64,000 nt of DNA from Spirochaetia bacterium (GTDB lineage Bacteria; Spirochaetota; Spirochaetia; SZUA-6; Bin103). Below, piece after piece: positions 29,063-57,331 of this stretch. Within the stretch, counting starts at the first letter, position 1, and each line of letters opens with the position of its first letter. The stretch is from positions 3,685,880 to 3,749,879 of the forward strand of contig OZ251575.1 of NCBI GenBank assembly GCA_965243555.1, read 5' to 3'. A model generated the notes under the pieces. It was not told the DNA's origin and made no database searches. It saw only the letters and a program-made list of their open reading frames with translations. A program made the translations under genes and the position numbers.

Positions 29063-29102
29063 AAGCGCCGCCGGGCGCGCTTCCGTAGTAAGATACGTAC
29101 GA

Positions 29103-30217: not shown

Positions 30218-30266
30218 TAAGCGGGGCCACCGGTAACGGGAACGCGGCGCCGGGCCGGCTTGAGGC

Positions 30267-30608
30267 TTAGCGCGATTTCAGGCGGCGCGCGCCGCGGCGG
30301 AGCAAGCTGCCGACGAAGGAGATGCCGCCGGCGGCGATCAGGGCAATCCCGCCGACATGTACCAGACTCTGGAGCAGGGAGCCGAACAGCAGCATGATGC
30401 CGCCGCCGGCGACGCCGTACCATCCCGCACGGCGTATTTCGGGGCGGGTAAGGACGGTCCACAATCCCCATCCGACCGCCACCGCGACCAGAATCGTGCG
30501 CGACACCGGGTTCAACAGGATGCCGTTGAACAATAGAATGGCCAGTCCGCTACCGGCCAGAAACAGGGGGCCGGGGATTTCCCGCGCCAGTTGCCGCTGC
30601 TCATCCAT
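30267..30608 (-). CDS. Small membrane protein (hypothetical)
   Basis: 'MDEQRQLAREIPGPLFLAGSGLAILLFNG...' is hydrophobic (3-4 transmembrane segments). It is the C-terminal part of the long track ORF 30267..31970. Confidence 0.4.
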   Translation of the reverse strand: MDEQRQLAREIPGPLFLAGSGLAILLFNGILLNPVSRTILVAVAVGWGLWTVLTRPEIRRAGWYGVAGGGIMLLFGSLLQSLVHVGGIALIAAGGISFVGSLLRRGARRLKSR

Positions 30609-30640
30609 GGAGCAAAGGTACCCAACCGGCGTCGCTACGG

Positions 30641-31408: not shown

Positions 31409-31592
31409 GGCGCGGAGCGTACCACACCGCCGCCGGCTCCTGCCGCGCGGGCGCTCGCCCCATGCATCGCGGGAGGGTGGGGGCTGTCTGGCGCCGGTCC
31501 TCCCGCGCGGGGGCTCGCCCGCTCGCCCGTGCGGCGTTGTCAGGCGCGCCGGCGTGTGGCATGGTGCGCAGCCGTGGCGGTCGCGGAGCACC

Positions 31593-32411
31593 ATGCCTGA
31601 GCTGCCGGAAGTGGAGACCACCCGGCGCGGCATCAGGCCGCACTTGGTGGGGCGCCGCGTGCGGGCCGTGGTGGTGCGCCAGCGGCAACTGCGATGGCCG
31701 GTGCCGGCGGAGTTGGAGGCCGCGCTGCCGGGCCGCGCCATCCGCGACGTGGGGCGGCGCGCCAAGTACCTGCTGCTGGAGACGGCGCCGGCCGGCATCG
31801 TGCTGCTGCACCTGGGGATGTCCGGCAACCTGCGAATGATTCCGGCGCCCACCCCGGCCGCCAAGCACGATCACCTCGATCTGGTCCTGGACGACGGCCA
31901 CGCGTTGCGCTTTACCGACCCGCGCCGCTTCGGCGCCTGCCTCTGGCAACCGCCGGGCCGCGCCCTCCATCCGCTGCTGAGCAAGCTCGGCCCCGAACCG
32001 CTCGGCCCCGAGCTGACCGCCGACTACCTATACGCCCGCGCCCGCCGCCGCCGCAGCGCCGTCAAGACGCTGCTGATGGACTCCCGCATCGTCTGCGGCG
32101 TCGGCAACATCTACGCCAACGAGGCGCTGTTCCGCGCCGGCATCCACCCATTGCGCGCCGCCGGCAACATCTCGCGCCGCCGCTACGCCGCCCTGGTGGA
32201 GGAGGTGCGCGCCGTTCTCGAAGCGGCGATCGTGGCCGGCGGCACTACCCTGCGCGACTTCCGTGACGCCGGCGGCCGGCCCGGCTACTTCCGCGCCCGG
32301 CTGGCGGTCTACGGGCGCGCCGGGGAGCCGTGCCTCCGTTGCGGCAACGCCGTAAGGTTGGTGCGCGCCGGGCAGCGCAGCACCTACTACTGCCCCCGTT
32401 GCCAACACTGA
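31593..32411 (+). CDS. mutM: Formamidopyrimidine-DNA glycosylase
   Basis: 'MPELPEVETTRRG' N-terminal Pro catalytic start; H2TH 'GVGNIYANEALFRAGIHP'; C-terminal zinc finger 'CLRCG..YYCPRCQ'. Confidence 0.9.
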   Translation: MPELPEVETTRRGIRPHLVGRRVRAVVVRQRQLRWPVPAELEAALPGRAIRDVGRRAKYLLLETAPAGIVLLHLGMSGNLRMIPAPTPAAKHDHLDLVLDDGHALRFTDPRRFGACLWQPPGRALHPLLSKLGPEPLGPELTADYLYARARRRRSAVKTLLMDSRIVCGVGNIYANEALFRAGIHPLRAAGNISRRRYAALVEEVRAVLEAAIVAGGTTLRDFRDAGGRPGYFRARLAVYGRAGEPCLRCGNAVRLVRAGQRSTYYCPRCQH

Positions 32412-32430
32412 TGGAGCAACGGGAGCAACG

Positions 32431-33411
32431 ATGAAACAGGTTCGGTTGGGCCGCGGCGGCCCGCAGGTGAGCCGGCTGGCCTACGGTTGCGCGGCACTCG
32501 CCGGTCCGTGGGAAAGCGGTGAGTTGACCGCCGACCGGCGGCGGCAGGCGCTCAGCGCGCTCGAAGCGGCGCTGGAGGCGGGCGTCAATCACTTCGATCT
32601 GGCCGACGTCTATGCCTACGGCCGGGCCGAGCAGGCATTCTCCGCCATCTGGGAGATCGATCCTGGGCTGCGCTCCCGCGTCGTCCTCCAGACCAAGTGC
32701 GGGGTGGTGCGATCGCCCGCGGACTCCTCGCGCGCGGGGACCTACTACGACTCAAGCTACGATCACGTCCTGGCCGCGGCGCGCGGCAGCCTCAAGCGGC
32801 TGCGGGTCGAGTATCTCGATCTCCTGGTAATGCACCGGCCCGACGTACTGATGGAGCCGGCGGAGGTGGCGGCGGCGTTCGAGCGCCTGCACGCCGCAGG
32901 GGAGGTGCGCGGCTTCGGCGTGAGCAACTACGCGCCGGGCCAGGTCGAACTGCTGGCGGCGGCGCTGGACCGCCCGCTGCTGGTGAACCAGCTCCAGGTG
33001 AGTCTGGCCCACCCCGACCTTATCGACGACGCCATCGTGGTGAACGACGCGCTGCCGAACCGCCCGGTGCGCGGCTTCGGAACGCTGGCCTACTGCATGC
33101 AGGCCGGAATCACCGTGCAGGCGTGGGCGCCCCTCGGCGCCGGGCGGCTGGTACGGGACGACGAGGCCGGCTCGGACTCCCGGCTGCGCGCCATGCGCCG
33201 CGAACTGCGGGAGGTCGCACAGCAGCGCGGGGTGCCTCCTGCCGCGGTCGCCATCGCCTGGATACTCCGCCATCCCGCCGGAATTCAGCCGATTCTTGGC
33301 GGCCGCACCCCGGCCGAGATTCGCGAGGCGACGCAGGGCATCGCCCTCGCCCTCACCCGCAGCGAGTGGTACCGCCTGTTCAACGCCGCCCGCGGCGCCC
33401 CGGTCCCATGA
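32431..33411 (+). CDS. Aldo/keto reductase
   Basis: 326 aa. 'LGRGGPQVSRLAYGC', 'VNHFDLADVYAYGRAE' and 'YLDLLVMHRPD' are classic aldo/keto reductase motifs. Confidence 0.85.
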   Translation: MKQVRLGRGGPQVSRLAYGCAALAGPWESGELTADRRRQALSALEAALEAGVNHFDLADVYAYGRAEQAFSAIWEIDPGLRSRVVLQTKCGVVRSPADSSRAGTYYDSSYDHVLAAARGSLKRLRVEYLDLLVMHRPDVLMEPAEVAAAFERLHAAGEVRGFGVSNYAPGQVELLAAALDRPLLVNQLQVSLAHPDLIDDAIVVNDALPNRPVRGFGTLAYCMQAGITVQAWAPLGAGRLVRDDEAGSDSRLRAMRRELREVAQQRGVPPAAVAIAWILRHPAGIQPILGGRTPAEIREATQGIALALTRSEWYRLFNAARGAPVP

Positions 33412-33461
33412 GCGGCGCCACGAGGTCCTGCGGCACGTGCAAAAGCGCTGCTGTCGCGCGG

Positions 33462-33592
33462 CTGTTGATTGGTGTATCATGGGTCTAACTATGATCAAGC
33501 CGGCAGCGCTGCATGATTCTCGTACCTTGCCGTTCCGTCGGTCGCCGATACCGGCGGTCAACGTGGCCCGCGTTACGGAGATGATCTCGTGA
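33462..33592 (+). repeat. Inverted-duplication copy 1: remnant of a Dam-gene promoter and 5' end, encoding a 33-aa peptide 'MIKPAALHDSRTLPFRRSPIPAVNVARVTEMIS'
   Basis: About 120 bp are homologous, in inverted orientation, to 43775-43890. The 22-bp perfect core cgataccggcggtcaacgtggc lies at 33546-33567. The peptide aligns with the N-terminus of the Dam methyltransferase ('MRGGPAAPADARTAAFCRSTIPAVNVAAV'). Confidence 0.55.
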
Positions 33593-34749
33593 GGGAGGTC
33601 TACCTGGACTACAACGGCTCGGCCCCGCTTGATCCTCGCGTCGCCGCGGTTATGGTACCGATCCTGACCGACGAGTCAGGAAATGCCTCGTCCAATCACC
33701 GGTTCGGCCAACGCCAAGCGGCGGCAGTAGACGAAGCGCGAGAGCAAGTCGCTGCCCTGGTGGGCGGACGCCCATCGGGCGTCGTGTTCACCGCTGGCGC
33801 CACCGAGTCCAATAACCTGGCGCTCCGAGGCATCGTTGAGGGTTCTCCCGTCGATCGTCCAAGGATACTGGTCTCAGCGGTCGAGCACGCGTCGGTACGC
33901 GAGGCAGCCCGGCGGCTCGACGAGCAGAAGATGGCGAAGCTGGGCGTCATCCCTGTGGATGAAGGGGGAGCTGCCGACGTGGACGCATTGGAGTCGATGA
34001 TCGGCCCTGACGTACTGCTGGTTTCCGTGATGGCCGCCAACAGCGAGACCGGAGTGCTGAACCCGGTGGAGGAAGTCGCGGAGCTGGCGCATTCTGCCGG
34101 GGCGCTGTTCCATTGCGACGCGACGCAGGCAGTTGGTCGCTTGCCTTTCGACCTGGAACAGGTCGGCGCGGACTTGGTATCAGTAAGCAGCCACAAAATA
34201 TGCGGCCCGATGGGCGTAGGAGCCCTGGTCGGCACTCGCCGTGGGCTGCAACGGCTGCGTCCGATCATCCACGGCGGCGGACACGAGCGGGGGCTGCGGT
34301 CAGGTTCATTGAACGTCGCCGGCATCGTCGGGTTCGGCGCCGCGGCCCACATCGCTGCCGAGGAACGAGACTTCGAGGCGACGAGGGTGGTCACACTCCG
34401 CGACCGGCTGACGTCCGGCCTCAAGTCGGCGCTCGCAGCCGTCGTCGACGTCGGAGACCCGACGCGCAGGCTCCCGAACACCGCCAATCTCCGTTTTGTG
34501 GGTGCCGACGCGGACGCTGTCGTAGCCAACGTCGACCCTGTAGCGGTGTCAGCAGGCAGCGCCTGCAATTCCGGTGCGATAGAACCGTCCGAGGTGCTGC
34601 TTGCCATGGGAATCGCCCGCGACGCGGCCTTCGAGACGGTCAGGTTCAGCTTGGGACGCTTTACGACCAAAGAAGATATCGACTATTCAATCGAGCGGAC
34701 CGTGGCGGCCGTGAATCGTGTACGAACCATGACCCGGGAGTGTGCGTAG
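33589..34749 (+). CDS. Cysteine desulfurase (IscS/NifS/DndA/SspA-like, PLP-dependent)
   Basis: 386 aa. 'VYLDYNGSAPLDPRV', 'FTAGATESNNLAL', 'SVSSHKICGPMGVGAL' (PLP lysine) and the catalytic 'SAGSACNSG'. Its stop directly abuts the next gene's ATG. Confidence 0.85.
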   Translation: MREVYLDYNGSAPLDPRVAAVMVPILTDESGNASSNHRFGQRQAAAVDEAREQVAALVGGRPSGVVFTAGATESNNLALRGIVEGSPVDRPRILVSAVEHASVREAARRLDEQKMAKLGVIPVDEGGAADVDALESMIGPDVLLVSVMAANSETGVLNPVEEVAELAHSAGALFHCDATQAVGRLPFDLEQVGADLVSVSSHKICGPMGVGALVGTRRGLQRLRPIIHGGGHERGLRSGSLNVAGIVGFGAAAHIAAEERDFEATRVVTLRDRLTSGLKSALAAVVDVGDPTRRLPNTANLRFVGADADAVVANVDPVAVSAGSACNSGAIEPSEVLLAMGIARDAAFETVRFSLGRFTTKEDIDYSIERTVAAVNRVRTMTRECA

Positions 34750-35727
34750 ATGCGGCTCACTGACGCCGCCAGGCCGAAATTCGCCAAGCATGAGACGTTT
34801 TACCCTCACTACGGCTGGTTTCGGAAGGCGTACTCCGTTGTAGCGGACGACCCTGATATCTTTACGGCCGCCGACGCTCCCGTACAAATCGGAGTCGGCA
34901 AGAACATGGTCCGAGCAATCCGTTTCTGGGGACGTGCGGCTAAACTGATCGAGGAGGCATCCGCCCCCTCGAGACGCCGGTCCTCAAGCATGGCCCCGAC
35001 TGACTTCGGTGAACAAGTCTTCGGTGACACCGGGTGGGATCAGTACATGGAGGATCCGGGGACGCTGTGGCTGCTGCACTGGAAGCTGTTGGCCCGTCCC
35101 TGCGATCTGCCGGTATGGTGGCTGGCATTCAACGAGTTTCACGCAGTCGAGTTCACCGAAGATCAACTCGAAGAGGCGGTGGTACTTTATCTCGAAGGAG
35201 TGTCGGATTGGACGATCCCGAAGCGATCCTCGATTAGAAAGGATGTCAATGCTCTGCTGCGGACCTATACCGCAGCCCACCGCGCGCGCCGCATCGGAGT
35301 AGACGATAGACTCAACTGCCCGTTGCGAGAACTGAACCTGATAGGACGGTCAGTATCTGTTGATGGTTACCGTTTCAGCGTCGGGCCGAAACCCACGTTA
35401 CCATCGAAGATAGTTGCCTACGCCGTGCTCGACTACGTCGTACGCACCGGAGGCAGAGGAAACACGATCACGATCGCTCGCCTGACCCATGAACGGGGTT
35501 CCCCCGGGAAGGTGTTCAAGCTCAATGAGCCAGATCTGCTGGCCGCTCTCAGGCCGGCGATTGACGATTCGGAGGAAATCTCTCTGACCGTTACTACCGG
35601 AGCGATTCAGTTTTCATGGAACGGAGAACCGGAGAATATCGCGACAACGATTCTCGACAGATACTACCACCCAGACACCCCACATGAAGGCGCTCAGGCT
35701 GGCATTCGAGTGGTGACGAGCCGATGA
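34750..35727 (+). CDS. DUF4007-family protein (SspB-like, phosphorothioation-associated)
   Basis: 325 aa. The N-terminal 'FAKHETFYPHYGWFRKAY' matches the ETF..R.GW..K signature I recall for DUF4007. It is translationally coupled on both sides (ATGA overlap with the next gene). Confidence 0.55.
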   Translation: MRLTDAARPKFAKHETFYPHYGWFRKAYSVVADDPDIFTAADAPVQIGVGKNMVRAIRFWGRAAKLIEEASAPSRRRSSSMAPTDFGEQVFGDTGWDQYMEDPGTLWLLHWKLLARPCDLPVWWLAFNEFHAVEFTEDQLEEAVVLYLEGVSDWTIPKRSSIRKDVNALLRTYTAAHRARRIGVDDRLNCPLRELNLIGRSVSVDGYRFSVGPKPTLPSKIVAYAVLDYVVRTGGRGNTITIARLTHERGSPGKVFKLNEPDLLAALRPAIDDSEEISLTVTTGAIQFSWNGEPENIATTILDRYYHPDTPHEGAQAGIRVVTSR

Positions 35728-38700
35728 CGGTACTTGCGGATCACGTCACTGTTGCCGGTCGATTCGCTCGCTCGGCGAACCTCGAACGCGATGCCGGGCG
35801 GGCGGAGCCACTTGACGGATACGTGGTAACTGCACGAGCTCTTGATGCCGTGGATCGGATTGCGTCCGTTGCCGCCGAGGGGCCGGCGGGCGGCGCATGG
35901 TCCATTACCGGGCCGTACGGGTCTGGCAAATCGTCACTGGCACTTTTGCTCAATGCCGCCTTCGGTCCTCCGTGCGGTACACGAGAGATTTCATGGAACC
36001 TCATCGACCAGGTTTCTCCAGAGGTAGGGGAGCGAGTTCGGCAAGCCCATCAACGCCACCGAACCCGTGGAGCCGGGTTCCATCGCGCGTTGGTCACCGC
36101 CAACCGTGAGCCCCTCAATCACACCGTGCTCCGGGCGCTCCATGCGGCGGTCGTGTGTCGGTACGGCAAGATACCGCGCTCAGACCGATTCCCGGCGGCT
36201 GGAACGTTGACACGCGCCCTCTACGAAATGGCCGGGAACGATCCGAGCCGTACTGGCCCTTCTCCCACCGCGCTGGTCGAGATCGCGCGATGTCTGGCAG
36301 AGAAGGCACCCCTGTTGCTGATTATCGACGAGTTCGGCAAGAACCTCGAAGCCGTTGGAGACGGCCGCGGCACCGATCCGTATCTGCTGCAGCAACTGGC
36401 CGAGGCAGGTCAAGGAGCCGGGCTTCCCATCTTCGTGCTCACCTTGCAGCATCTGTCTTTCGAAGACCACGTGATCGGCGCAGACGATCCTCTGCGCCGA
36501 GAATGGGCCAAGGTGCAGGGCCGATTCGAGGACATCTCCTACGTAGACACCGCCCCGGCGACACGAGCCTTGATCGGTACGGTATTCAAGGTTGCCGACG
36601 ATAATCTCAGACACCGGATCAACTGTTGGGCAGTTCGGGCAGCCACGGAGATGCGGATACTAGGCGTCGCCGATCTAGCGGACCCGACTACGTTAGCTAC
36701 TTGCTATCCCCTGCATCCTCTCGTAACGATGGTTCTACCCGAGCTGTGCAGCCGCTATGGACAGCACGAGCGCACGTTGTTTTCTTTTCTCGCTGGTTCT
36801 GAGTCGGCGACTGCGGCGGCATTCCTTAAGACCACAAAGCTTCCGGCCGATGCTGATCTGCCTACCGTGGGCCTCGATGTAGTCTATGACTATTTTGTCG
36901 ACAGCGGTGTGCTTGCGCCGACTTCCGCGGGACGGTCGAGCCGATGGGCCGAAATCACTACCCGTATTCGGGATACTCACGGTCTTTCGACGCGGCAGTT
37001 GCGGATAGTCAAAACGGTCGCGTTGCTCAATCTGGTTTCGGTCGCCGGAACGATTCGCGCATCCTCCCGGGTGCTCGCTCTTGTCGATACCGAGGTTGGC
37101 GCGACGCTCGCGGCTCTTGACGAGGCCGGTATCGTTACCTATCGAGAATTCGCCGACGAGTACCGAATCTGGCAGGGGACGGATATCGACATCCGCCGTC
37201 TACTTGAATCCGCTGGCCATCAGGTACAGCGGCAGTCACTCGCGGACATTCTGCCGGCCTTGGACCGGCCTGGCCCTGTCGTGGCTGCGCGCCACAGCGC
37301 TGAACGCGACATACTCCGAGTATTCGCTAGGCGCTATGTCGAGGGTTCCGAGTGGGTCAAGCCACTTGACCCGTTTTCTCCCTACGACGGTGAGGTGCTG
37401 CTCGTCGTCGGATCAGGTGGGGCGACTCCGGCTGCGACGTGGACGCCCGGCACGGCAAAACCGGTTGTAGCAGCGATACCTGCCGACTTAAGCGCAGTCG
37501 ACCGCGCCGCGCGAGAGGCTGCGGCAGTCTCTGCTGTGCTGAAAGATCCTTCCGTCCAGGCCGACAGAGTCGCTCTGACCGAGATGAGCGAACGATTGGC
37601 AGAGACAAAGACCGCGGTCGAACATGAGCTCTCTGTCGCGTTCAGCGTTAATCCGTGCCGTTGGGTCTTGCTCGACGCTTCGGGCAATCAGCCATTGAAT
37701 AGCGGCCGCGGTACCGCCCCTCTCTCAGACGCGGCTGACCTTGCTTATCGTTCTACACCACAAGTACGCAACGAGATGCTCAATCGCGCTGAGCTAACGT
37801 CTCAGGGCGCGATGGCCCGGCGCCTACTGTTGGAAGGCATGATCGAGCGAGGCTCCGAGCAGAACCTCGGGCTTACCGGCTATGGCCCGGAAGTCGCCAT
37901 GTACCGAGCGTTCTTGGAAAAGACCAGACTTCACAGAATCGACCCCCACACCAAGACGATGGTATTTCGTAAGCCCAAAGACCCCTCCCTTCAACATGCT
38001 TGGGCGGTTGTAAAGAAAGCATTTAGAAGCGCCAGGACAAGCCGCATCAACCTTAACAACGTCTATGCATCCCTGTTGTCGCCGCCGATTGGGATGAAGC
38101 CCGGAGTCATTCCCGTATTTGTTACGGCGGCATTGCTCGTATTCAATGACGAGGTAGCTATCTACGAGCATGGAACCTTCAAGCCCTTGCTGACGCCCGA
38201 GATGTCTGAGCGAATGGTCCGGAACCCCGTCCACTTTGAAGTAAAACACTTCGCCAACACGACAGGAGCCCGTCGTCAGGTCATTGATGCGCTTGCCAAG
38301 GAGCTCGGTGTTCGGCCGGGATTCCGCAAGCATCGAGTCGCGAATGTGCTCTCTATCGTTGGGCACTTGGTGTCACGCATGAGGCACGTCGAGAACTATA
38401 CCTTGCACACATCGCAACTAGACTCAACAGTACGGACTGCGCTTGTGGCGGCCGTCGAGCCAGACAAACTGCTATTCTACAGCCTTCCGGATGCACTTGA
38501 GTTCCCCTCGGTGCCACCCAGTGCGAAGGTGTACATCTACGCCGAACGGTACGCCGCCGCAGTCCGAGCGGCGATCGATCACCTTACGCAGTGCTACCGG
38601 CGACTTCTAGAGAGTCTCCGCGATCTTTTCTTCGAGACGTGCGGCGAGACTGAACGAAGGGCGATTACCGGGCAAGCGGTCGCAATCGAGAAGGAGGTCT

Positions 38701-40838
38701 TCAACCCTTCTATACGCCCGTTTGTCCTTGCGCTGGGGAACGATGCGCTCGATACCGAGATCGACTGGATCGACCTGCGACGCTTCAAGTACGAGCTTCC
38801 GCGCCAGATTGCAGCATTCCAACGCATCGTCGCGCTCCACGCCGGCTACATGGCCACTGGCGGTGGGCCGTTCCAAGCGCTCCGACTGACTCTCACCCGT
38901 CCGGATGGCATCGAGTATAATCGTCTCGTCAGCGTTGACAAGAGTCACCGCGATCAGGTACTGTCGATCCTTGACAGCACGGTGGAGGCTACTACTCACG
39001 CTCTCGCTGAACTCATTGACAATTCGATCGAGAGTCAAGCGAACGTGATTGAGATATTCGGCGTGAGTAGGAAGGATCATCGTACTAGCCGATTTACGCT
39101 CGATGAATTGGCCGTTCTTGACAATGGTGACGGAATGGACCAAGCAACTCTCCGCGGAAGCCTGCGCTACGGTCATGGCACCCGCAGGGAAAGAACAGGA
39201 ATTGGGCGTTTTGGTCTCGGGCTTCCGAATTCGTCGATGTCGCAGGCCCGGCGTGTCGACGTTTGGTCGTGGCGATCTGGTGTAACGAACGCCCTTCACA
39301 CATGGCTCTCCATTGACGATGTGGAGGCTGGAGCCAGCGAGATACCAGAGCCCATATTGGAGCCGATTCCCATGCGGTACCGAGTGGGGAGCCGTCACGG
39401 GTTCGGCGAAACCGGCACGCTGGTCGTATGGACCGATCTCGATCGCGTTGAATGGAAGCAGGTATCCACGACTTTCAAGCATACTGAGAACCTACTCGGT
39501 AGGATATATCGGCGTTTTCTAGCCAAACCATCGGAGAGGCTCCACGCCGCCGACGTGCGCGCGGATGAGATTGGCACGCGACGCTCAATAACTTGCATCC
39601 CGATCCAGGAAGACGGCGAGGTCGGGACGGTCGTTGACTCCGATGTCGTCGAGGTGAGACCCAACGATCCACTGTACCTCATGACAGACACATCATGCCC
39701 GGAGGCGTTCGGACCAGGGCCGATGTTTATGGAGCTCGAAGGGAGTCCTTTTTCGGTTCCCGTGACCCACATGGGAAGGGAGTACCAAGTAATAGTCAGG
39801 GCCAGCTATGCTCACGCGCACGCTCGCGACTCGCTGGCTTCCGGCGCCGCATGGCCAGACGAATGGAAGGGACGCGCTCCGGGACATACACCGTGGGGGA
39901 AGCACGCTAACCAGAACATAGGAGTATCCTTAGTCCGGGCACACAGGGAGATCCAACTTGACGACTCGTGGATTAGCGGCGACGACCCGCGAGAACGCTG
40001 GTGGACCGTGGAGTTGGATTTTCCTACGGCTCTCGACGAGGTATTTGGTGTCGCAAACAACAAGCAGAGTACGGTCACGTTTCAGCGACTTGCCAGGTAC
40101 GAATGGGAACGAGAGGCGCTTCCAGGCGAGACCTCGAGCGGTGATGTCCGACGACGGATGGAGCAGGAGGGAGACCCCCGAACTCATCTTCTGGATCTAC
40201 GGAGGCAGATCAATAGGGTGATAGAGCTGATGCGTAGCCGCGTGCGGCAAGCACGGCAACGGCGTAGCCGGCGTCACGATCTTGATGAAGATCAGAAGGC
40301 GGATGCCAGAGCCACTGCCACAATCAAGCGGCGCATACAGGAGGGCTACCAGGGGGAGTCCGAACGTGCAGCAGAATCGGGCACTGACGAGGAACACAAG
40401 GACGCTCACGTTGAATCACTCGTCGACAGGCACCACCTTGATCGCGTTGACGCATTGCGGAGGATAGACGAGACTATCAAGGCCGGAAACCGAGTCCGTT
40501 GGATTCAGTCGTCGCAGTCGAGTGCCGCGTTCTTTGACGTTGAGCCACTGCCAAATGTGATACAGGTTGTACTCAACACTAATCATCCGGTGCACGGTCA
40601 TCTATACGAGGTAATGCATCCCGACATCGAGGACATGACCGAAGATGAGGTACGTGAACGACTCGCGAAATCCGCTGCAGCGTTTCGTATCTTGATTTAT
40701 TCGTGGGCGCGCTATGAGGAGGAGCAGAACGAACGGAACCGGCGACGCGTACGAGATGCGCGCATGGAGTGGGGCAAGTACGCGGAAGAGTTCTTCGATG
40801 ACGACGACGGGGCCGTCCCACCAACAGATTTAGTGTAG
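35724..40838 (+). CDS. 1704-aa fusion protein: N-terminal P-loop NTPase plus a C-terminal-half GHKL (Bergerat-fold, HATPase_c_3-like) ATPase with an acidic/coiled-coil tail
   Basis: Walker A 'ITGPYGSGKSSLALL' (~35910-35940) and Walker B 'LLLIIDEFGKNLE' (~36312-36350). GHKL N-box 'ELIDNSIES', G1 box 'VLDNGDGMD' and G2 box 'GIGRFGLGLPNS' (~39000-39230). Lower GC than the flanks. Confidence 0.8.
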   Translation: MTVLADHVTVAGRFARSANLERDAGRAEPLDGYVVTARALDAVDRIASVAAEGPAGGAWSITGPYGSGKSSLALLLNAAFGPPCGTREISWNLIDQVSPEVGERVRQAHQRHRTRGAGFHRALVTANREPLNHTVLRALHAAVVCRYGKIPRSDRFPAAGTLTRALYEMAGNDPSRTGPSPTALVEIARCLAEKAPLLLIIDEFGKNLEAVGDGRGTDPYLLQQLAEAGQGAGLPIFVLTLQHLSFEDHVIGADDPLRREWAKVQGRFEDISYVDTAPATRALIGTVFKVADDNLRHRINCWAVRAATEMRILGVADLADPTTLATCYPLHPLVTMVLPELCSRYGQHERTLFSFLAGSESATAAAFLKTTKLPADADLPTVGLDVVYDYFVDSGVLAPTSAGRSSRWAEITTRIRDTHGLSTRQLRIVKTVALLNLVSVAGTIRASSRVLALVDTEVGATLAALDEAGIVTYREFADEYRIWQGTDIDIRRLLESAGHQVQRQSLADILPALDRPGPVVAARHSAERDILRVFARRYVEGSEWVKPLDPFSPYDGEVLLVVGSGGATPAATWTPGTAKPVVAAIPADLSAVDRAAREAAAVSAVLKDPSVQADRVALTEMSERLAETKTAVEHELSVAFSVNPCRWVLLDASGNQPLNSGRGTAPLSDAADLAYRSTPQVRNEMLNRAELTSQGAMARRLLLEGMIERGSEQNLGLTGYGPEVAMYRAFLEKTRLHRIDPHTKTMVFRKPKDPSLQHAWAVVKKAFRSARTSRINLNNVYASLLSPPIGMKPGVIPVFVTAALLVFNDEVAIYEHGTFKPLLTPEMSERMVRNPVHFEVKHFANTTGARRQVIDALAKELGVRPGFRKHRVANVLSIVGHLVSRMRHVENYTLHTSQLDSTVRTALVAAVEPDKLLFYSLPDALEFPSVPPSAKVYIYAERYAAAVRAAIDHLTQCYRRLLESLRDLFFETCGETERRAITGQAVAIEKEVFNPSIRPFVLALGNDALDTEIDWIDLRRFKYELPRQIAAFQRIVALHAGYMATGGGPFQALRLTLTRPDGIEYNRLVSVDKSHRDQVLSILDSTVEATTHALAELIDNSIESQANVIEIFGVSRKDHRTSRFTLDELAVLDNGDGMDQATLRGSLRYGHGTRRERTGIGRFGLGLPNSSMSQARRVDVWSWRSGVTNALHTWLSIDDVEAGASEIPEPILEPIPMRYRVGSRHGFGETGTLVVWTDLDRVEWKQVSTTFKHTENLLGRIYRRFLAKPSERLHAADVRADEIGTRRSITCIPIQEDGEVGTVVDSDVVEVRPNDPLYLMTDTSCPEAFGPGPMFMELEGSPFSVPVTHMGREYQVIVRASYAHAHARDSLASGAAWPDEWKGRAPGHTPWGKHANQNIGVSLVRAHREIQLDDSWISGDDPRERWWTVELDFPTALDEVFGVANNKQSTVTFQRLARYEWEREALPGETSSGDVRRRMEQEGDPRTHLLDLRRQINRVIELMRSRVRQARQRRSRRHDLDEDQKADARATATIKRRIQEGYQGESERAAESGTDEEHKDAHVESLVDRHHLDRVDALRRIDETIKAGNRVRWIQSSQSSAAFFDVEPLPNVIQVVLNTNHPVHGHLYEVMHPDIEDMTEDEVRERLAKSAAAFRILIYSWARYEEEQNERNRRRVRDARMEWGKYAEEFFDDDDGAVPPTDLV

Positions 40839-40845
40839 GCGGACT

Positions 40846-41760
40846 GTGTCGGACAGCGACTATACTCAAGGAAGCCGTATTCGAGTTCTACTCGGCCGTG
40901 CTGTTCGGAATGTCGCAGTCATAGCACCGTTCGTCAAAGTCAATGCACTCCGATCGCTTCTCGACGCTATCCGCACAGATGTTCACGTACGCTGCGTTAC
41001 CCGCTGGCTTCCACGTGATGTAGCCGCGGGTGTCTCCGATCCGGAGATTATGGACGCACTCGAGGAGCGCGGCAACTTCAGCCTGTCGCTGGTTGACAGA
41101 CTGCATGCAAAGCTCTACGTCTCCGACGATAGGTGCCTTGTCGGCTCATCGAACGTGACCTTTGCCGGGATGGGTGAGCGAACGGATGACAGCAACATCG
41201 AGGTACTCGTAGAGACGGCCGCCGACGATCCGGCTGTCGTTGCCACGCTCCACGAAATCATGCAGGCAGAGCGCCCAGCGACACGATCCATCGCCTTGGC
41301 GGCACGCCGCTTGGCAGATAGTCTCCCAGCGGAGGCGAGAACGTCGGCGGACGCCGGTGCAACCTGGTTTCCGTGCAGCCGGCATCCGGAGTACGCATTC
41401 CACTTTCATAGCCAGCCGCCCAGCGGATACGTAAGAGCATCAGACAACGATCTTCTCGCAGACTTGGCTCGTTCCAACTTACACCCGGGTCTGAGCGAGG
41501 AGGAGTTCAGTTCGGCTATCCGATCGTTGCTTGCGACGATACCGGTTGCCACCATCATTCTCAGCTCCGAGGAGGACATGACGTTCACCCGTGCGGATGC
41601 TCAGTCGTACTTGGAGGGAATTGCAGGTGAGGAGTTCTCAGCAGGCGACCTGTGGAGCGCATTCGTCAACTGGATGGCCTATTTTTTCCCAGAATCAGTT
41701 ATAAGGCAAGAGATTTCGGAAATCGCACTTCGTCGGGCGCAGATTCTGAATGATCGATAG
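40846..41760 (+). CDS. Phospholipase D-family (single HKD) nuclease
   Basis: 304 aa. 'LHAKLYVSDDRCLVGSSNVTFAGM' is the H-x-K-x4-D-x6-G-S-x-N motif (41101-41170). One HKD per chain implies a dimeric Nuc/BfiI-like nuclease. It sits 7 bp after the giant ATPase. Confidence 0.75.
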   Translation: MSDSDYTQGSRIRVLLGRAVRNVAVIAPFVKVNALRSLLDAIRTDVHVRCVTRWLPRDVAAGVSDPEIMDALEERGNFSLSLVDRLHAKLYVSDDRCLVGSSNVTFAGMGERTDDSNIEVLVETAADDPAVVATLHEIMQAERPATRSIALAARRLADSLPAEARTSADAGATWFPCSRHPEYAFHFHSQPPSGYVRASDNDLLADLARSNLHPGLSEEEFSSAIRSLLATIPVATIILSSEEDMTFTRADAQSYLEGIAGEEFSAGDLWSAFVNWMAYFFPESVIRQEISEIALRRAQILNDR

Positions 41761-42149
41761 CGGTCAACCGGGACGTATACGAGATTCAGGCTTGCGGCCA
41801 CCACGGTACCCCCCGAGGCGCGGCGCTATGATCGGGATCGACACCGGCGCGCCGCCGCCTTCGCCTGTCGCCCTTTCGGCTCATCTGCTCGTGGAGATCA
41901 TATGCGAGGTCGGCTACCGTGTCCGCATTGTCAACAGATCGTCCGAACCGTCGTATCCGGTCGATAGCATACTGTGCGCCTTCTGGAGGTGGCGCTTCGA
42001 AGCAAGCAGAGATTCTTCGAAGATTGTCGACGATGGTCGACTCAGTTCGAATGCTACCGACAGGTCAGTGCCGCCACGCAGAGCCGCGACTCCCTCTCTA
42101 CTGCTCAAGACTGAATCAAGTTGGCGAAGGTGTGGATTCTGCGCTTCAA

Positions 42150-42947
42150 CTACGGGTGGTTGGTCCGCCTCTTGCTGCCGTACATCCACAGAAAGAGTTC
42201 TCCGAGCTCGGTTCTCCGCTCGACAGGAACCGGCTCAGTATCCTCGAACGAATAGTCCCACAGACCGATGAATTCTGATATTCCGGAATAGTCCAGGCCG
42301 GTATAGAGGTGAGAGAACGAGAAATGACTACGCCATCGGTCGGAGCGGCTGAACACTTTCATTCGCTCAGCTTGTTCGATAACGATGAGGCTCCGGAACA
42401 GTCGCTGGACGGTGCGGTGAGTGTCGCCGATCTGCCTGGCGATGCTATCAAGCGGTATGGAAAAGCCTTTGCGGATCTCTGCGATGTACCGGGCCTTCGC
42501 ATAGCTGCTCCACTTCGCGGGACCATTTATGTGCTTGAAGCCAAGATGGCGCCACGAATCCTCCCGATTGCTGAACAGGACCGGCAGCTTGTTGAGGTCC
42601 TTCTTCGCTTCCCCGGTAATCTCCGGTATATCCGTTGCGAATCCGAAAGACTCAGGATCCAATAAGATTCTGACTGCGGCCAGGCGGCGGTTACCTTCAA
42701 CGACTACGTTCTTTCCATTTTCCGCAGCGACGATCAACGGTTCATGGCTGAAGAACCCGCTGGCCGCAATGGAGAGGACCAACTCCCGGACGTCCATTGC
42801 GTCCCACAGCACCTTGATAACGTCTGAATCCGTGGAGTTATCGGTCAGCTCAAACTCCGGCAACCGAGGGTTCGCAAAATCGAAGATGAGCTCCGCGACC
42901 GCCACCGTCTCTACGGAAGCAGCAGCACTCTTCGAACGTGGTATCAT
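42150..42947 (-). CDS. ParB-like nuclease domain protein
   Basis: 265 aa. 'VVVEGNRRLAAVRILL' is the ParB/Srx GxRR box. Lies 16 bp downstream of the Dam gene on the same strand. Confidence 0.6.
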   Translation of the reverse strand: MIPRSKSAAASVETVAVAELIFDFANPRLPEFELTDNSTDSDVIKVLWDAMDVRELVLSIAASGFFSHEPLIVAAENGKNVVVEGNRRLAAVRILLDPESFGFATDIPEITGEAKKDLNKLPVLFSNREDSWRHLGFKHINGPAKWSSYAKARYIAEIRKGFSIPLDSIARQIGDTHRTVQRLFRSLIVIEQAERMKVFSRSDRWRSHFSFSHLYTGLDYSGISEFIGLWDYSFEDTEPVPVERRTELGELFLWMYGSKRRTNHP

Positions 42948-42963
42948 TCGGAACCTCCGTATT

Positions 42964-43860
42964 TCACGTGAACAGGCGGTCCTTGGTGATGATCAGTTCG
43001 GCGATGCGGGCGTGATGGCCGTTCTTCATTTCGACTACCGCGGCGTGGAACTTGAACCTGTCCACCAGATCGACGATTTCCTCGCTGCAGTCGTAGGTCA
43101 TCAGAAAGTCGGCTTCGCTATCTGCCAGCACGCGGAATACACGTTGGTGATCTACTTCATTGTGAGCGTAGAGGCGGGAGCCGGCGCGCTTGCCGCCGGC
43201 CGCGGTGTATGGCGGATCGACGAAGAAGCGCACCTCCCGGCGCTGCTCGGCGAGTGTCTCCATAATCCGCACGCCGTCGCCCTCGCGGAAGGTAAATCGG
43301 TTCGAGTAGGCCGCGATCGCGCGCAGGCGCTGCTCCAGGGTAGCGGGATACCAGCGCGAAGCAACGCCCTGGCCGTTCTCGCCATTTCTGGTGAGCGCTG
43401 CCCCCGGTGCGAGTACGCCGCCGCGCCGCGTGCGATTCAACACCAGAGTGCGAAATCCATGTTCCAGCACGTTTTCGGGAGCACGTCGCGCCAGCGCTTC
43501 CACGCTTTCCCGATCGGGGAAGAAGCGACGTATCGACGTTATCAGTTCGGCGCTGTGCTCCAAAGCAGCGCGCCAGAACGCAGCCACGTCGCGGTCCAGA
43601 TCAACCAGATACGCTCGCTCTGACAGCTCTTCCATAACGGCGGTCAAGGAGACGATGGCCCCGCCGGCGAACGGCTCGACGAGCAGCTCGGTGTGGCGGT
43701 CGCGCAGCCAATGCCGGATGTGCGGAACCAGCCACGTTTTACCGCCGGGGTACCGCAACGGGCTGCGTTGGGGAACGGCCGCCACGTTGACCGCCGGTAT
43801 CGTCGATCGGCAGAACGCCGCGGTGCGCGCGTCAGCCGGTGCTGCCGGTCCTCCCCTCAC
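42964..43860 (-). CDS. Dam-family (D12 class) N6-adenine DNA methyltransferase
   Basis: 'SPLRYPGGKTWLVPHI' (motif X), 'VEPFAGGAIVSL' (motif I) and 'FVDPPYT' (motif IV). GTG start at 43860, or the internal GTG at 43786. Confidence 0.8.
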   Translation of the reverse strand: MRGGPAAPADARTAAFCRSTIPAVNVAAVPQRSPLRYPGGKTWLVPHIRHWLRDRHTELLVEPFAGGAIVSLTAVMEELSERAYLVDLDRDVAAFWRAALEHSAELITSIRRFFPDRESVEALARRAPENVLEHGFRTLVLNRTRRGGVLAPGAALTRNGENGQGVASRWYPATLEQRLRAIAAYSNRFTFREGDGVRIMETLAEQRREVRFFVDPPYTAAGGKRAGSRLYAHNEVDHQRVFRVLADSEADFLMTYDCSEEIVDLVDRFKFHAAVVEMKNGHHARIAELIITKDRLFT

Positions 43861-43890
43861 TGCCTACGGACGATACATCAAATTAGGCGG
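43775..43890 (-). repeat. Inverted-duplication copy 2 (native Dam promoter and 5' end)
   Basis: The reverse complement of 43781-43802 is identical to 33546-33567. The flanks are about 65% identical over roughly 120 bp. Confidence 0.55.
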
Positions 43891-44004
43891 CCGCAACAGC
43901 AACCGGCGTGACCCGGCCGGCAGTGCGCGCGAGTGGCGGCGTCCGTGGTCAGCGCGGCCCGCGCGCGAGAGGAAACGGGCGGGCGGGTTGCAGGTAGGGG
44001 GCTC

Positions 44005-46947
44005 TCAGTCGTCGAGGAGGCCGAGTTCGCGGAGGGGCTCCAGGACGTTGTGCTCCAGTTTGGCGGAGTCGAGGGGGCCGGCCGGGTTGGCGGCCTTGAT
44101 GCTGATGGTGACTTCGCCGGCCAGTTCGGCGAGGTTGGCGAGGGCGCGCCACGCCTCGTACAGCTCGCCGCTGCCGGCGGTGAACGAGATTGCCACGTCG
44201 CCGGCAGTTCCGGGGGCGGAGCGCGGGGGATCATCGGGACCGCCGGCGGTTCCGGTACCGGCGCCGGTGGGTTGGCGGACTTCGCCTCCGGTGGCGGCAA
44301 TGCCCTGCAGCGTCTGCGCCGGCGCGGGACCGCCGGCCCCGGCCCCGGTCGCGGTCGGGACGGCCGGCGCTGGCGCTACGGCGGGTTTCGGCAGCGCGGC
44401 GGGCAGGATGAGGAAGCCGGAGTCGAGGTCGATCTCGTCAGCGGCAACGGCGCGCTCGAAGGCGATGCGGCTGCGGTCAAGGCGGTAGCGGCCGTCCTCG
44501 CCGAGTGGCGGGCGGGCGGTGGCGTAGCCGAACAGGCCGGTCTCCACGCCGCGGGCGATGGCGGCGCGCACCACGCCGGTGGAGCGCAGGCGCGGGAAGC
44601 CGAGGAACGAGAAGAAGCCGGCGACCACCTCGGCGGTCGGGATGCCGGGCGCGGCGCCGTCCCGGCCGACGTTGAACAACTCGATGATCTTGCCCGGCGC
44701 GACGGTGTCGAAGACCAGGCGTCTCACCTCCGCCAGCAGCTCCATCAGCCGCTGGTGAATCAGGGCGTGCTTGCCGGCGCCGAGGGTGTTCCGCAACGGG
44801 CGCCCGCCCATGGCGACGGTTTCCAGGACAAGCGCGCCGGCGCCCGACTCCGGCAGCAGCACTGCCGCGTACAGCCCCAGCAGCGCCGACTCGGCGGCGG
44901 TCTCCTCGGTCGCCGCCCGCTCCTTGAGCTGGCTGCGCTGCGCCGCGGTGAGGTTGTGCTGCCGCGACCGTTCGCGCACCTGCTCCACGGCCAGCGCATA
45001 GCGCACCGCGCGGCGCAACCCCCGGATGCGGTCCGGGTCGGGCACGGCGAGCGCCAGACCGTTGCGGTACTCGCGCGCCCGCGGTCCGTGGTTCTCGCAC
45101 AGATCGCGCGCGGCCGCCTGCTGCTCGGCCGCAGAGCCGGCGGCGAACTCCAACGGCAGGTAGGCGATCAGAAAACGCGCGTCGCGGTCCGGCACGTCGG
45201 CCGAGCGCTCCGGCCAGATGATGGCCGGCTGGCCGGCAAGCCGTTCTTCGATCAGCGCCCGGATGCGGGCGCGCACGCGGCCCTCGTCCCGCGCGTCCGC
45301 CTCCTGCTCGACCAGCAGCGTCACGTTGGGGTCGCGCTTGAAGCAGTAGCGCGCGCCGTCGAAGTGGAGATACAGGCACTGCTCCCGCAGCTCCTTGAGG
45401 CACGCCTGCGCGGTGGTGCTGTCCAGGTCGGGACCGATGCTCACCCCCAGCAGCTCGGACTCGGTGATGCCGGGGGGCAGCGGGTCGCCCTCATCGTCAT
45501 CGCTCCCCGCCCGGCGCAGCCCGCCGAACGAGTAGAGCAGCATGATGGTCGCCAGGCGGGTGGCCGGTTCCCTGCCGGCCTCCGACGTCACCTCCCGCGC
45601 GCGCCGCCGGTCGATGCGCGGCGCGCGCGCGTTGCCGCCCACGAAGTCGTGCTCCAGACACGCCTGAAAATCCTCCCGCTGCCCCACCTCCTTGAAGAAC
45701 GCGAGGCGCACCTCGGCGTCCCGCAACGGCACGTCGCCGGGGCCGAGCAGCAGGCGCGACCGGCCCGCGCGGTGCGCGGCGCGCAGGCAGGCCGCCAGAA
45801 AGCGCAGGGCGCCGCGCGTGCGCTGGAAGTCCGGCACCGCCGCCCAGCGTTCCCGCATCAGGTCGATCAGCGCGGGATGAAAGGGGTAGGCGGCGCTGAT
45901 CCGGTCGCGCAACGCCATGCCTTCCTCCTCCGCCTGCCGCCGTTCGGCGTCGCCCTGCGCGTACGCCTGCCGCATCCGCGTGAACACCTGCCGGTACGCT
46001 TCGGCCACGCTCCCCGCGGCGTTCGCGTCCGGCGCCGCGGCCAGCAGCCGCCGCCGGATCACGTGGAGGATTTCGTTGCCGGCGACCGGCTCCCGCCGCT
46101 GGTCCTTGCGGGCGGCCAGGTGCTCGACGGTCTGCAGCAGCCCCGTGTACTCAAGCGACTCGCGCGCGCTCGACTGCAGCGAGTACACCAGCACCGCGTC
46201 ATCGACGGCGCCGACCGCCACGGTGAGCCGCTTCAGGAACGACAACGTCTCGTCGCGCAGGGTGGTCTGGCCCACGCGCACGCCGCCGGCGCTGATCAGG
46301 TATTCCAGGATTTCATCGAGGAGGATGAGGCTCGGCCCGCGCCGCAGCAGCTCGATCAGCACGTCGCCGCCGGGCGCCACGCGCGCTTCGTCCTGGCGCC
46401 GCAGCAGGGCGTAGCCGCCCGCCCCGCCGAGCGCCCAGCCGATCCATCCCCAGATCGTGCGCGCCGTCACCTCCGCCTGCGGCGCGCGCTTGCCGGCGGT
46501 GGCGTCGAAGAGCTGGCCGTCCACGACCGCCGCCCGCACCCGCTCCGGGCGCGGCAGGCCGGCCGCTTCCGGCAGCGCGGCGAGCGCGTCCCGCGACCGG
46601 GCGGCGTGCAGCAGCGCGGCGAGCGTGTGCGACTTGCCGCCGCCGAACGGGGTCATCAGCTTGAGCACGCGGTTGCCGCGCGCGCCGGCCAGCCGGCTCA
46701 GCACGTCGTCGAGCAGCGAGCGCAGCCCGGCGGTGAGGTAGGAGGCGGCGAAGAAGCTGCCGGGGTCGCGGTAGACGGCGGGCACGCGCGGCAACTCGGC
46801 GTCCGGCGCGCCCCGCTCCCTGCCGGTCAGATAATCGGACAACGCCCCCAGGTCGAGCGCGAATACGTCGTCGGAAAACTCGTCCGCCAGGACGTCCGGG
46901 TGCAGGGCGGCGCATTCGATCCAGGGCCGTAGCGGCGTGCCGTTCAT
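44005..46947 (-). CDS. DUF499-family ATPase (component of the DUF499/DUF1156/helicase restriction-modification-like system)
   Basis: 980 aa. Walker A-like 'KLMTPFGGGKSHTLAAL', Walker B 'SLILLDEILEY' and an Ala/Pro/Gly-rich linker before the C-terminal domain. Adjacent to the DUF1156 methyltransferase. Confidence 0.7.
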   Translation of the reverse strand: MNGTPLRPWIECAALHPDVLADEFSDDVFALDLGALSDYLTGRERGAPDAELPRVPAVYRDPGSFFAASYLTAGLRSLLDDVLSRLAGARGNRVLKLMTPFGGGKSHTLAALLHAARSRDALAALPEAAGLPRPERVRAAVVDGQLFDATAGKRAPQAEVTARTIWGWIGWALGGAGGYALLRRQDEARVAPGGDVLIELLRRGPSLILLDEILEYLISAGGVRVGQTTLRDETLSFLKRLTVAVGAVDDAVLVYSLQSSARESLEYTGLLQTVEHLAARKDQRREPVAGNEILHVIRRRLLAAAPDANAAGSVAEAYRQVFTRMRQAYAQGDAERRQAEEEGMALRDRISAAYPFHPALIDLMRERWAAVPDFQRTRGALRFLAACLRAAHRAGRSRLLLGPGDVPLRDAEVRLAFFKEVGQREDFQACLEHDFVGGNARAPRIDRRRAREVTSEAGREPATRLATIMLLYSFGGLRRAGSDDDEGDPLPPGITESELLGVSIGPDLDSTTAQACLKELREQCLYLHFDGARYCFKRDPNVTLLVEQEADARDEGRVRARIRALIEERLAGQPAIIWPERSADVPDRDARFLIAYLPLEFAAGSAAEQQAAARDLCENHGPRAREYRNGLALAVPDPDRIRGLRRAVRYALAVEQVRERSRQHNLTAAQRSQLKERAATEETAAESALLGLYAAVLLPESGAGALVLETVAMGGRPLRNTLGAGKHALIHQRLMELLAEVRRLVFDTVAPGKIIELFNVGRDGAAPGIPTAEVVAGFFSFLGFPRLRSTGVVRAAIARGVETGLFGYATARPPLGEDGRYRLDRSRIAFERAVAADEIDLDSGFLILPAALPKPAVAPAPAVPTATGAGAGGPAPAQTLQGIAATGGEVRQPTGAGTGTAGGPDDPPRSAPGTAGDVAISFTAGSGELYEAWRALANLAELAGEVTISIKAANPAGPLDSAKLEHNVLEPLRELGLLDD

Positions 46948-46962
46948 CGTACTCGTACTCCC

Positions 46963-49770: not shown

Positions 49771-49795
49771 ACGACGCCGGTGGCGGCAGTCGGCA

Positions 49796-50646: not shown

Positions 50647-50649
50647 TCG

Positions 50650-53755: not shown

Positions 53756-57331
<3,576 letters not shown>

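Follow-up and report, generated by a model that had tools for sequence, protein, structure and literature searches.

The 64,000-nt stretch of DNA analysed here (the window) carries two related sequences in inverted orientation on either side of a defence cassette. One of them, copy 2, is the genuine promoter-proximal 5′ end of an intact D12-class adenine methylase gene, MTase2. The other, copy 1, very probably derives from a second, diverged allele of that gene (MTase1, about 79% nucleotide identity) whose body was lost by in-frame deletion, the remaining stub being an ordinary relic that now leads sspA. The main value of this reading is corrective: an apparent regulatory or recombination site is in fact a conserved coding block cut by a deletion. 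The pattern that misleads is the combination of a perfect core, diverged flanks and inverted geometry around a defence cassette.

Two methylase 5′ ends in inverted orientation

Positions 33500-33574 are the reverse complement of 43774-43848 over 75 nt (76% complementary, 10,199 nt between the arms), and a repeat search returned them as by far the longest inverted pair within 32000-46000. At their centre the 22-mer CGATACCGGCGGTCAACGTGGC is exact in both arms. In copy 1 (33546..33567, plus strand) it encodes (P)IPAVNVA and is followed immediately on its 3′ side by a deletion breakpoint; in copy 2 (43781..43802, minus strand) it encodes (T)IPAVNVA inside a functional gene. Outside the core, 35 of 53 positions are identical (66%), and weaker similarity persists 5′ of both start codons (for example, TTGGTGTATCAT versus TTGATGTATCGT). 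The original prediction had described the inverted similarity of the 33.5-kb and 43.8-kb segments, put the flank identity at about 65% and quoted the two encoded peptides, and all three agree with our alignment and with the translation of both copies. The 22-mer occurs twice in the 64-kb window even when three mismatches are allowed, against no match in 100 shuffles, and no exact match was found in JGI metagenome contigs; on these grounds a generic repeat was rejected.

MTase2 (42964..43860, minus strand; GTG start at 43860) encodes a 298-aa protein that is 97% identical to P0001. Its assignment to the D12-class N6-adenine DNA methyltransferases follows from a Pfam PF02086 match over residues 37-272 (2.5e-13) and the presence of RYPGGKTW and FFVDPPYT, and it also matches PADLOC PD-Lambda-5_B (5e-45). 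The promoter-like region ahead of it (43861..43905, minus strand) has a -10-like TATCGT at 43875-43870, 9 nt before the GTG, and is conserved in three related contigs (L002, L003, L004). The methylase family spans many phyla of sponge symbionts at 56-70% amino-acid identity and may itself merit study. Two of its alleles, P0004 and P0009, are mosaic.

Copy 1 is an open reading frame of 33 codons and a stop (33491..33592, plus strand; MIKPAALHDSRTLPFRRSPIPAVNVARVTEMIS*), recognized by translation, by blastn to L005 and by tblastn of the methylase P0006, which matches 33479-33574. MTase1 codons 1-26 are joined in frame to seven C-terminal codons, followed by the stop codon of the original gene. 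The deletion took RYPGGK, DPPY and the entire domain; copy 1 is a remnant and not a member of the D12-class N6-adenine DNA methyltransferases. The C-terminal scrap (33568..33592, plus strand) reads ARVTEMIS*, comparable to ARIAELIITRDRLFS*, as judged from the alignment with L086-L089 and from the C termini of P0006 and the window methylase. An alternative alignment of 33568-33584 as an internal methylase segment was set aside, as L086-L089 favour the C-terminal assignment. The TGA of the stub overlaps the GTG of sspA (GTGA), with GGAG at 33577-33580, 8 nt before that GTG.

Upstream of the stub, a promoter-like region (33441..33490, plus strand) carries a -10-like TATCAT at 33475-33480, 10 nt before the ATG at 33491. 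This region aligns with L005 1339-1393, which precedes the intact MTase1; it is shared with L086-L089 at 97% identity and includes a TG(G/A)TGTAT(C/G)(A/G)T block that is common to copy 2 and L001. A sigma-70 consensus scan called neither upstream region, and the promoter activity that we ascribe to both is predicted from homology and position.

The copy 1 peptide resembles the alleles P0010, P0008 and P0006 more closely than it does the resident MTase2. What had been taken for a duplication of the Dam promoter and 5′ end did not arise by duplication in this genome; the copies are two diverged alleles, one of them mostly deleted. Gene conversion between the copies was also rejected, since L005 and L002-L004 have the same 22-mer in other contexts, with allele-specific bases on either side of it.

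Deletion history of MTase1 ahead of sspA

Comparison with sister contigs shows what the stub once was. The gene order in L005 is AKR, an intact 301-aa methylase, sspA (overlapping the methylase), sspB and sspC, and L090 has the same arrangement with a methylase that translates intact. In both, MTase1 occupies this chromosomal site and immediately precedes sspA, the stop codon of one overlapping the start codon of the other. By blastn, window positions 32103-33567 correspond to L005 1-1465 (89%) and positions 33585-36355 to L005 2275-5039 (87%). L005 1466-2274, the methylase body, is missing from the window, and the left breakpoint at 33567 is the exact end of the 22-mer. Four further assemblies (L086-L089) share the large deletion and hold an intermediate form, ...NVARVTELIITRDRLFS*; they retain 21 nt that are absent from the window, which marks a second deletion found in the window only. 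Both deletions are in frame and both keep the GTGA overlap with sspA.

These comparisons show the following course. In sister genomes intact MTase1 heads the ssp operon, and its stop codon overlaps the start of sspA. In the lineage of the window, an in-frame deletion of ~770 bp took out everything from codon 27 of MTase1 up to 15 codons short of its stop, and the second in-frame deletion of 21 nt, specific to the window, left the 33-codon open reading frame. The stub still has the MTase1 upstream region and start codon, and its stop overlaps the sspA start as in the intact gene. The presence of MTase2 (84% amino-acid identity in the body) probably made the loss of MTase1 tolerable. The 21-nt deletion and the sspC fusion described below were found in the window alone, and either may be an assembly error.

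The window matches the backbone of L091, whose order is AKR, ParB, NotI-like gene, MTase2 and HmaC with no ssp block, plus the segment 33408-41846. The inverted orientation and 10-kb separation of the copies follow from the convergent arrangement of two adjacent methylase-led modules, the ssp block (33408-41846) and MTase2 with its ParB-like gene (41847-43905). The original prediction had offered three explanations for the repeat: a shared operator, a crossover site for inversion, and the fossil of an event that captured a Dam promoter for the defence operon. The last comes closest to the truth and is essentially upheld, with the correction that the fossil is a whole methylase gene before sspA, intact in L005 and L090, whose body was lost later by in-frame deletion.

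The present sole use of the stub would be as promoter and translation-initiation leader of sspA. Transcription may start a few nucleotides before the ATG, with translation of the short reading frame ending at the sspA GTG. The second deletion would also have set GGAG 8 nt ahead of that GTG. The stub resembles a truncated-paralogue remnant at an operon head: it comprises a 5′ fragment, the upstream region and a few 3′ codons, sister genomes hold an intact orthologue at the same position, and the genome itself has another, intact paralogue. It differs in that neither of the two successive deletions disturbed the frame or the stop/start overlap, and in that the stub may be a translated leader. 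On the other side, two in-frame deletions could be due to chance (about 1 in 9), and the three stub substitutions between the window and L086-L089 all change the amino acid, which gives no sign of a conserved peptide.

A stronger proposal is that the methylase head (promoter and first 26 codons) is a portable expression or recombination module, behind which sponge-symbiont defence cassettes have repeatedly been placed and at which they have been swapped. On this view selection would have kept the in-frame stub as a translated leader through which ssp expression responds to the signals of the surviving methylase, and the stub would not be neutral debris. We consider this very unlikely.

A methylase or stub precedes sspA in none of 80 other metagenomic Ssp loci. 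The idea that the methylase is a general first gene of Ssp operons was likewise rejected on this count and on the pairing's occurrence in almost none of 80 methylase loci.

The 22-mer as a coding block

The original prediction had read the perfect core in diverged flanks as a sign of selection on the DNA itself. The translation of the 22-mer, IPAVNVA, is a motif kept in this methylase family across many phyla, and the N termini of 120 homologues share F.xS.IPAVNVAxVPQRSPLRYPGGKTW, which places copy 2 in coding sequence under protein constraint. The synonymous sites of the IPAVNVA codons vary freely in 80 other genomes. Moreover, exact runs of 22-42 nt are routine between alleles over the entire methylase gene: MTase2 and the L005 methylase, at 79% nucleotide identity, share runs of 26, 25 and 23 nt, and MTase2 and L001 share runs of 42, 29 and 24 nt. 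The synonymous variation and the equally long runs elsewhere in the gene led us to reject DNA-level selection on the 22-mer. The match in the core is perfect since this is the family's first strongly conserved stretch of coding sequence. The variable N-terminal tail lies on its 5′ side and the deletion junction on its 3′ side; the 3′ "flank" of copy 1 is that junction.

The same observations weigh on the shared operator, in which a single regulator, such as the ParB-like protein, would bind the 22-mer or the homologous block upstream and co-regulate both convergent operons. Both 5′ regions do come from one ancestral promoter region and share TG(G/A)TGTAT(C/G)(A/G)T about 10 nt before the start codon, so that a factor acting on one could act on the other, and the core contains a short palindrome, ACCG-G-CGGT. 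However, the 22-mer lies inside coding sequence that specifies a family-wide protein motif, with free synonymous sites and exact runs of equal length elsewhere in the gene. The ParB-like gene is frameshifted in the window, most members of the methylase family are solitary, with no ParB-like partner nearby, and neither module holds an HTH regulator gene of the kind that would go with a C-box. We regard a shared operator as distinctly improbable.

It is also highly unlikely that the methylase 5′ end serves as a homology patch for the exchange of defence modules between strains, with the stub as an exchange scar and not a simple deletion. The gene content beside MTase2 differs between strains at the same locus, mosaic methylase alleles exist, and the breakpoint falls exactly at the end of the 22-mer, all of which speaks for such a patch. 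Yet to the right of the junction lies the C terminus of MTase1 itself, as an internal deletion would leave it and foreign exchange would not, and the variable segments start at the methylase stop codon and not at its 5′ end.

Recombination between the inverted copies, flipping the 10.2-kb segment as a switch, has only a very slight probability. The segment is bounded at both ends by inverted repeats (75 nt, 76%, 22-nt exact core) in the same codon phase, and the earlier statement that both products would stay in frame is correct. The repeat nevertheless offers only 22 exact bases within 76% identity, and allele-specific bases reach right up to the 22-mer in the assemblies compared. Only parental junctions were found in the five stub assemblies (the window and L086-L089) and in four other MTase2 contigs (L002, L003, L004, L091). 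Judging from the geometry, an inversion would leave both operons with a promoter and the methylase with an intact N terminus, so that nothing would be switched. Pfam, PADLOC and NCBIfam scans of the open reading frames between 579 and 63150 found no recombinase, integrase or transposase domain, in accord with the earlier remark that the window has no recombinase gene, and this too speaks against an invertible site. Known invertible switches (fimS, hin, shufflons, hsdS inversion) similarly have inverted repeats flanking a multi-kb segment that includes promoters, but here the scanned reading frames hold no recombinase, the repeats are only 76% identical, related assemblies show one orientation, and inversion would leave expression unaltered.

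Least credible is a structured RNA leader or functional leader peptide common to both transcripts: although both mRNAs would start with about 75-110 nt of homologous sequence, folding z-scores are +0.85 and +1.0 (neither better than shuffled), an Rfam scan of 32500-45000 at E<=1 gave no relevant match and one chance miRNA match, all three stub substitutions alter the amino acid, and in 80 other Ssp loci sspA has no leader of this kind; a structured cis-regulatory RNA was rejected accordingly.

Erosion of the adjoining defence modules

The deleted methylase is not the only loss, and the ssp locus is otherwise eroded too. The window holds sspA, a cysteine desulfurase gene (33589..34749, plus strand; PADLOC SspA 6e-129, Pfam Aminotran_5), and sspB, a DUF4007 gene (34750..35727, plus strand; PADLOC SspB 1e-101, Pfam DUF4007 5e-85). 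The next reading frame (35724..40838, plus strand), previously described as a giant PLD gene, is an in-frame deletion fusion of SspC and a HATPase_c_3 protein, with PADLOC SspC over residues 16-1084 (1e-283) and HATPase_c_3 over residues 1091-1209. SspC, from residue 1 up to about residue 1109, is followed in it by residues about 18-646 of the HATPase_c_3 protein, with the junction near 38961-38991, so that SspC lacks about its last 50 residues. The PLD-family nuclease-like protein is encoded by a separate reading frame, the last of the plus-strand block (40846..41760; Pfam PLDc_2, PLDc), and the same gene follows the HATPase gene in L090. Absent from the window is L090 13283-17884, which contains the end of sspC, sspD, a GmrSD_N gene and a DEAD helicase gene.

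SspA, SspB (DUF4007) and SspC, all three matched by PADLOC models, lie in one operon, as they do in the SspABCD phosphorothioate modification module. As in the SspABCD-SspE phosphorothioation defence (PMC8092258, PMC9646914), sspA, sspB and sspC are in canonical order with strong profile matches, and the close relatives L086 and L090 continue with sspD and a GmrSD_N (SspE-like) gene. SspD, the PAPS-reductase-family ATP pyrophosphatase, directly follows sspC in L086 and in 45 of 80 other loci, whereas tblastn with L086 SspD and the 252-aa L090 homologue gave no match in the 64-kb window. The window thus differs from that system in the deletion of sspD and the SspE-like gene and in the fusion of sspC to the HATPase_c_3 protein; a D12 methylase or stub before sspA is particular to this clade. 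Because sspD is missing, annotation of this module as a functional phosphorothioation system is unwarranted. The genome probably has another ssp locus elsewhere. Across related strains, the island preserves a stepwise record of erosion, from intact gene to large in-frame deletion to second in-frame deletion.

The module of MTase2 is damaged as well. The original prediction had described a ParB-Dam operon; its methylase is intact, but the ParB-like gene (41867..42947, minus strand) carries two frameshifts, with tblastn of P0242 matching in three frames. Its only intact reading frame is 42150-42947 (265 aa), against 366-369 aa in homologues. The candidate gene orf173 (41750-42271, plus strand) was rejected as an antisense shadow of the frameshifted ParB-like 3′ part. 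The pairing of a D12 methylase with a downstream protein that has a ParB N-terminal domain recalls PD-lambda-5. Gene B is matched over its full length (PD-Lambda-5_B 5.1e-45, MTase2 residues 32-296 versus profile positions 5-273 of 291), whereas the match to gene A (PD-Lambda-5_A) covers the N-terminal domain only (residues 15-171 versus profile positions 14-173 of 473) in a frameshifted gene, and the close relative L091 differs further in having a NotI-like endonuclease gene between methylase and ParB.

The neighbours of MTase2 vary by strain at the same locus: BrnT and a 1469-aa helicase in L002 and L004, the NotI-like gene and ParB in L091, and ParB and the ssp block in the window. On its upstream side, outside the repeat and given here as context, the window has an HmaC-like DUF499 ATPase gene (44005-46947, minus strand) and an HmaB-like DUF1156 methylase gene (46963-49770, minus strand).

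Inverted repeat and the coding sequence within it

The repeat search returned an inverted pair of 75 nt (33500-33574 versus 43774-43848; 76% complementary, arms 10,199 nt apart), the longest within 32000-46000. Its core, the 22-mer CGATACCGGCGGTCAACGTGGC, matches exactly at 33546-33567 (+) and 43781-43802 (-). A search of the 64-kb window allowing 3 mismatches gave these two copies only, which argues against a generic repeat, and 100 shuffles gave 0 matches. The inverted repeat described in the original prediction is therefore real, and its peptides appear in translation as quoted. Identity beyond the core is 35/53 (66%, close to the predicted 65% or so), and similarity extends, more weakly, upstream of both start codons.

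Copy 2 is the 5′ end of MTase2, an intact D12 adenine methylase gene (42964-43860, -). Its relatives number thousands; in the best 120, the segment preceding the catalytic RYPGGK motif reads F.xS.IPAVNVAxVPQRSPLRYPGGKTW and the residues before it are variable. The 22-mer thus encodes a family-wide protein motif, which makes copy 2 a normal stretch of coding DNA. Across 80 genomes of many phyla, synonymous positions of the IPAVNVA codons vary freely (ATT/ATC/ATA, CCT/CCG/CCC/CCA, GTC/GTG/GTT/GTA, AAC/AAT), so there is no constraint on the 22-mer DNA itself, and the selection on DNA invoked to explain a perfect core between diverged flanks is not borne out. MTase1, the methylase allele behind copy 1, is 79% identical to MTase2 in nucleotides over the gene, with exact runs of 26, 25 and 23 nt; MTase2 and the L001 allele share runs of 42, 29 and 24 nt. 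The 22-mer is simply the first of the exact blocks common to the alleles. The variable N-terminal tail precedes it, and in copy 1 a deletion junction follows it. Within the methylase gene, the 21 nt at 43634-43654 also resemble the 22-mer region when that is reverse-complemented (17/21), probably by chance, as GC-rich sequence here contains many such pairs.

Copy 1 and the missing methylase

Copy 1 lies between an aldo/keto reductase gene (AKR; 32431-33411, +) and sspA (33589-34749, +). In the sister contig L005, the same AKR gene is followed by a methylase of 301 aa (P0006), intact and 83% identical to MTase2, whose stop codon overlaps the sspA start, and then by sspA, sspB and sspC. By blastn, window 32103-33567 corresponds to L005 1-1465 (89%) and 33585-36355 to L005 2275-5039 (87%), so that exactly the methylase body is missing from the window; on the left, the break falls at the final base of the 22-mer. 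The 63-kb contig L090 shares the L005 arrangement, and its methylase translates intact. Four assemblies (L086-L089), with SspB 98% identical to that of the window, carry the large deletion and retain 21 nt absent from the window. Their stub, MVKPVALHDSRTLPFRRSPIPAVNVARVTELIITRDRLFS followed by a stop, joins 26 N-terminal codons in frame to the last 15 methylase codons (P0006 ends in HHARIAELIITRDRLFS); the window stub, after a second, in-frame 21-nt deletion, ends in NVARVTEMIS. Both forms keep the GTGA stop/start overlap with sspA.

These alignments make it very probable that copy 1 is the remnant of MTase1, a second methylase allele that formerly headed the ssp operon. The suggestion of a fossil of promoter capture was close to correct, except that L005, L090 and L086-L089 show the fossil to be of a whole methylase gene heading that operon. 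Each of the two convergent modules begins with a methylase allele of its own, and their 5′ ends thus necessarily face outward. A recent duplication inside this genome is excluded because the copy-1 peptide is nearer to other alleles (P0010, P0008 and P0006) than to MTase2 itself. In L086 (7826-8056; L087 and L088 likewise), the stub is immediately preceded by two small fragments that correspond to the fpg end (window 32131-32254) and the AKR start (window 32469-32577); these ssp blocks thus retain, in an otherwise different neighbourhood, what heavy deletion has left of the flank on the AKR side.

A recombination scar from module exchange is unlikely, since the sequence to the right of the junction is still that methylase gene, at its C-terminus. 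The originally proposed operator shared by both operons is not supported: the site is coding with free synonymous positions, the ParB-like gene carries frameshifts, and methylases of this family are mostly solitary. Nor is inversion of the cassette between the copies, given the poor repeat, parental junctions only in 9 related assemblies and, as first noted, no recombinase domain in any ORF scanned across the window; inversion would moreover leave a promoter on both operons and the methylase N-terminus intact. A structured RNA leader is excluded as far as the tools used allow.

Possible role of the stub

Hexamers resembling a -10 element, TATCAT (33475-33480) and TATCGT (43875-43870), stand 10 and 9 nt upstream of the respective start codons; a sigma-70 consensus scan made no call at either upstream block. 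As putative promoters, they would yield nearly leaderless transcripts. Both deletions preserved the reading frame as well as the overlap of stop and start codons, so the stub may continue to be translated and may deliver ribosomes to sspA; through the second deletion, GGAG (33577-33580) also came to lie 8 nt ahead of the sspA GTG. The presence of MTase2 probably made the loss of MTase1 tolerable. All three substitutions between the window and L086-L089 stubs are non-synonymous, which counts against selection on the peptide. We put the chance that the stub serves as a translated leader for sspA at about even.

A decaying defence island

Copy 1 is of a familiar kind: the remains of a gene within a defence island in decay. 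Downstream of sspA lie sspB (DUF4007; 34750-35727, +), a 1704-aa ORF (35724-40838, +) and a PLD-family gene (40846-41760, +). The ORF matches SspC over residues 16-1084, followed by a HATPase_c_3 domain. Relative to the window, L090 has an additional segment of about 4.6 kb (13283-17884, with the last part of sspC, then sspD, a GmrSD_N (SspE-like) gene and a DEAD helicase), whose loss fuses SspC (residues 1 to ~1109) in frame to the HATPase_c_3 protein (residues ~18-646) near 38961-38991. The window module therefore lacks sspD, which follows sspC in 80 other Ssp loci wherever the contig extends that far; judged from its gene content, it is incomplete. The methylase or its IPAVNVA remnant occurs in 0/80 of those loci, so the methylase-led arrangement is specific to this clade. 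Outside the window, a second SspB paralogue (P0369, 94% identical to window SspB) was found; the source genome probably holds another ssp locus, which may be complete, and may also hold a third copy of the stub.

Compared with its full-length homologues of 366-369 aa, among them P0242 with 93% identity, the ParB-like gene (41867-42947, -; intact ORF part 42150-42947) has two frameshifts, real or sequencing errors, and the plus-strand orf173 (41750-42271) is only its antisense shadow.

Gene content at this chromosomal site differs between related strains. L091 has no ssp genes: there, AKR is followed on the opposite strand by a ParB-like gene, a NotI-like endonuclease gene and MTase2, after which comes a DUF499 gene. 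Window 28884-33407, 41847-42962 and 42956-45508 match it at 95-98%; the window is therefore the L091 backbone plus an 8.4-kb block (33408-41846), without the NotI-like gene. That gene (PF12183; L091 2553-3372) lies between methylase and ParB-like gene, where the window has 16 nt only (42947-42964), so MTase2 lacks its likely restriction partner. L002 and L004 have BrnT and a 1469-aa helicase between AKR and MTase2.

A minus-strand defence cluster (44005-58687) holds a DUF499 ATPase and DUF1156 methylase of Hma type (44005-49770), two Uma2-family genes, a UvrD-like helicase and a SNF2/ResIII helicase of 1643 aa that carries a NOV_C domain (Hma-like). This cluster, the ssp module and the methylase module make up a single defence island adjoining fpg and AKR. 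sspA and the methylase have a third-position GC of ~0.74-0.75, and most of the housekeeping genes around them have 0.85-0.95, consistent with a foreign origin of the defence modules.

We found no paper describing this D12 methylase family (L006-L085, P0001-P0120). Usually solitary, it shows 56-70% protein identity between MAGs from a great many phyla. Almost all of these MAGs can be recognised as symbionts of marine sponges (Poriferisodalis, Entotheonella, Tectimicrobiota, Porisulfidus, sponge Synechococcus and others), a pattern that suggests wide horizontal transfer within sponge microbiomes. The alleles P0004 and P0009 are mosaic, near-identical to MTase2 in the first half and clearly diverged in the second, indicating recombination between methylase alleles in the population.
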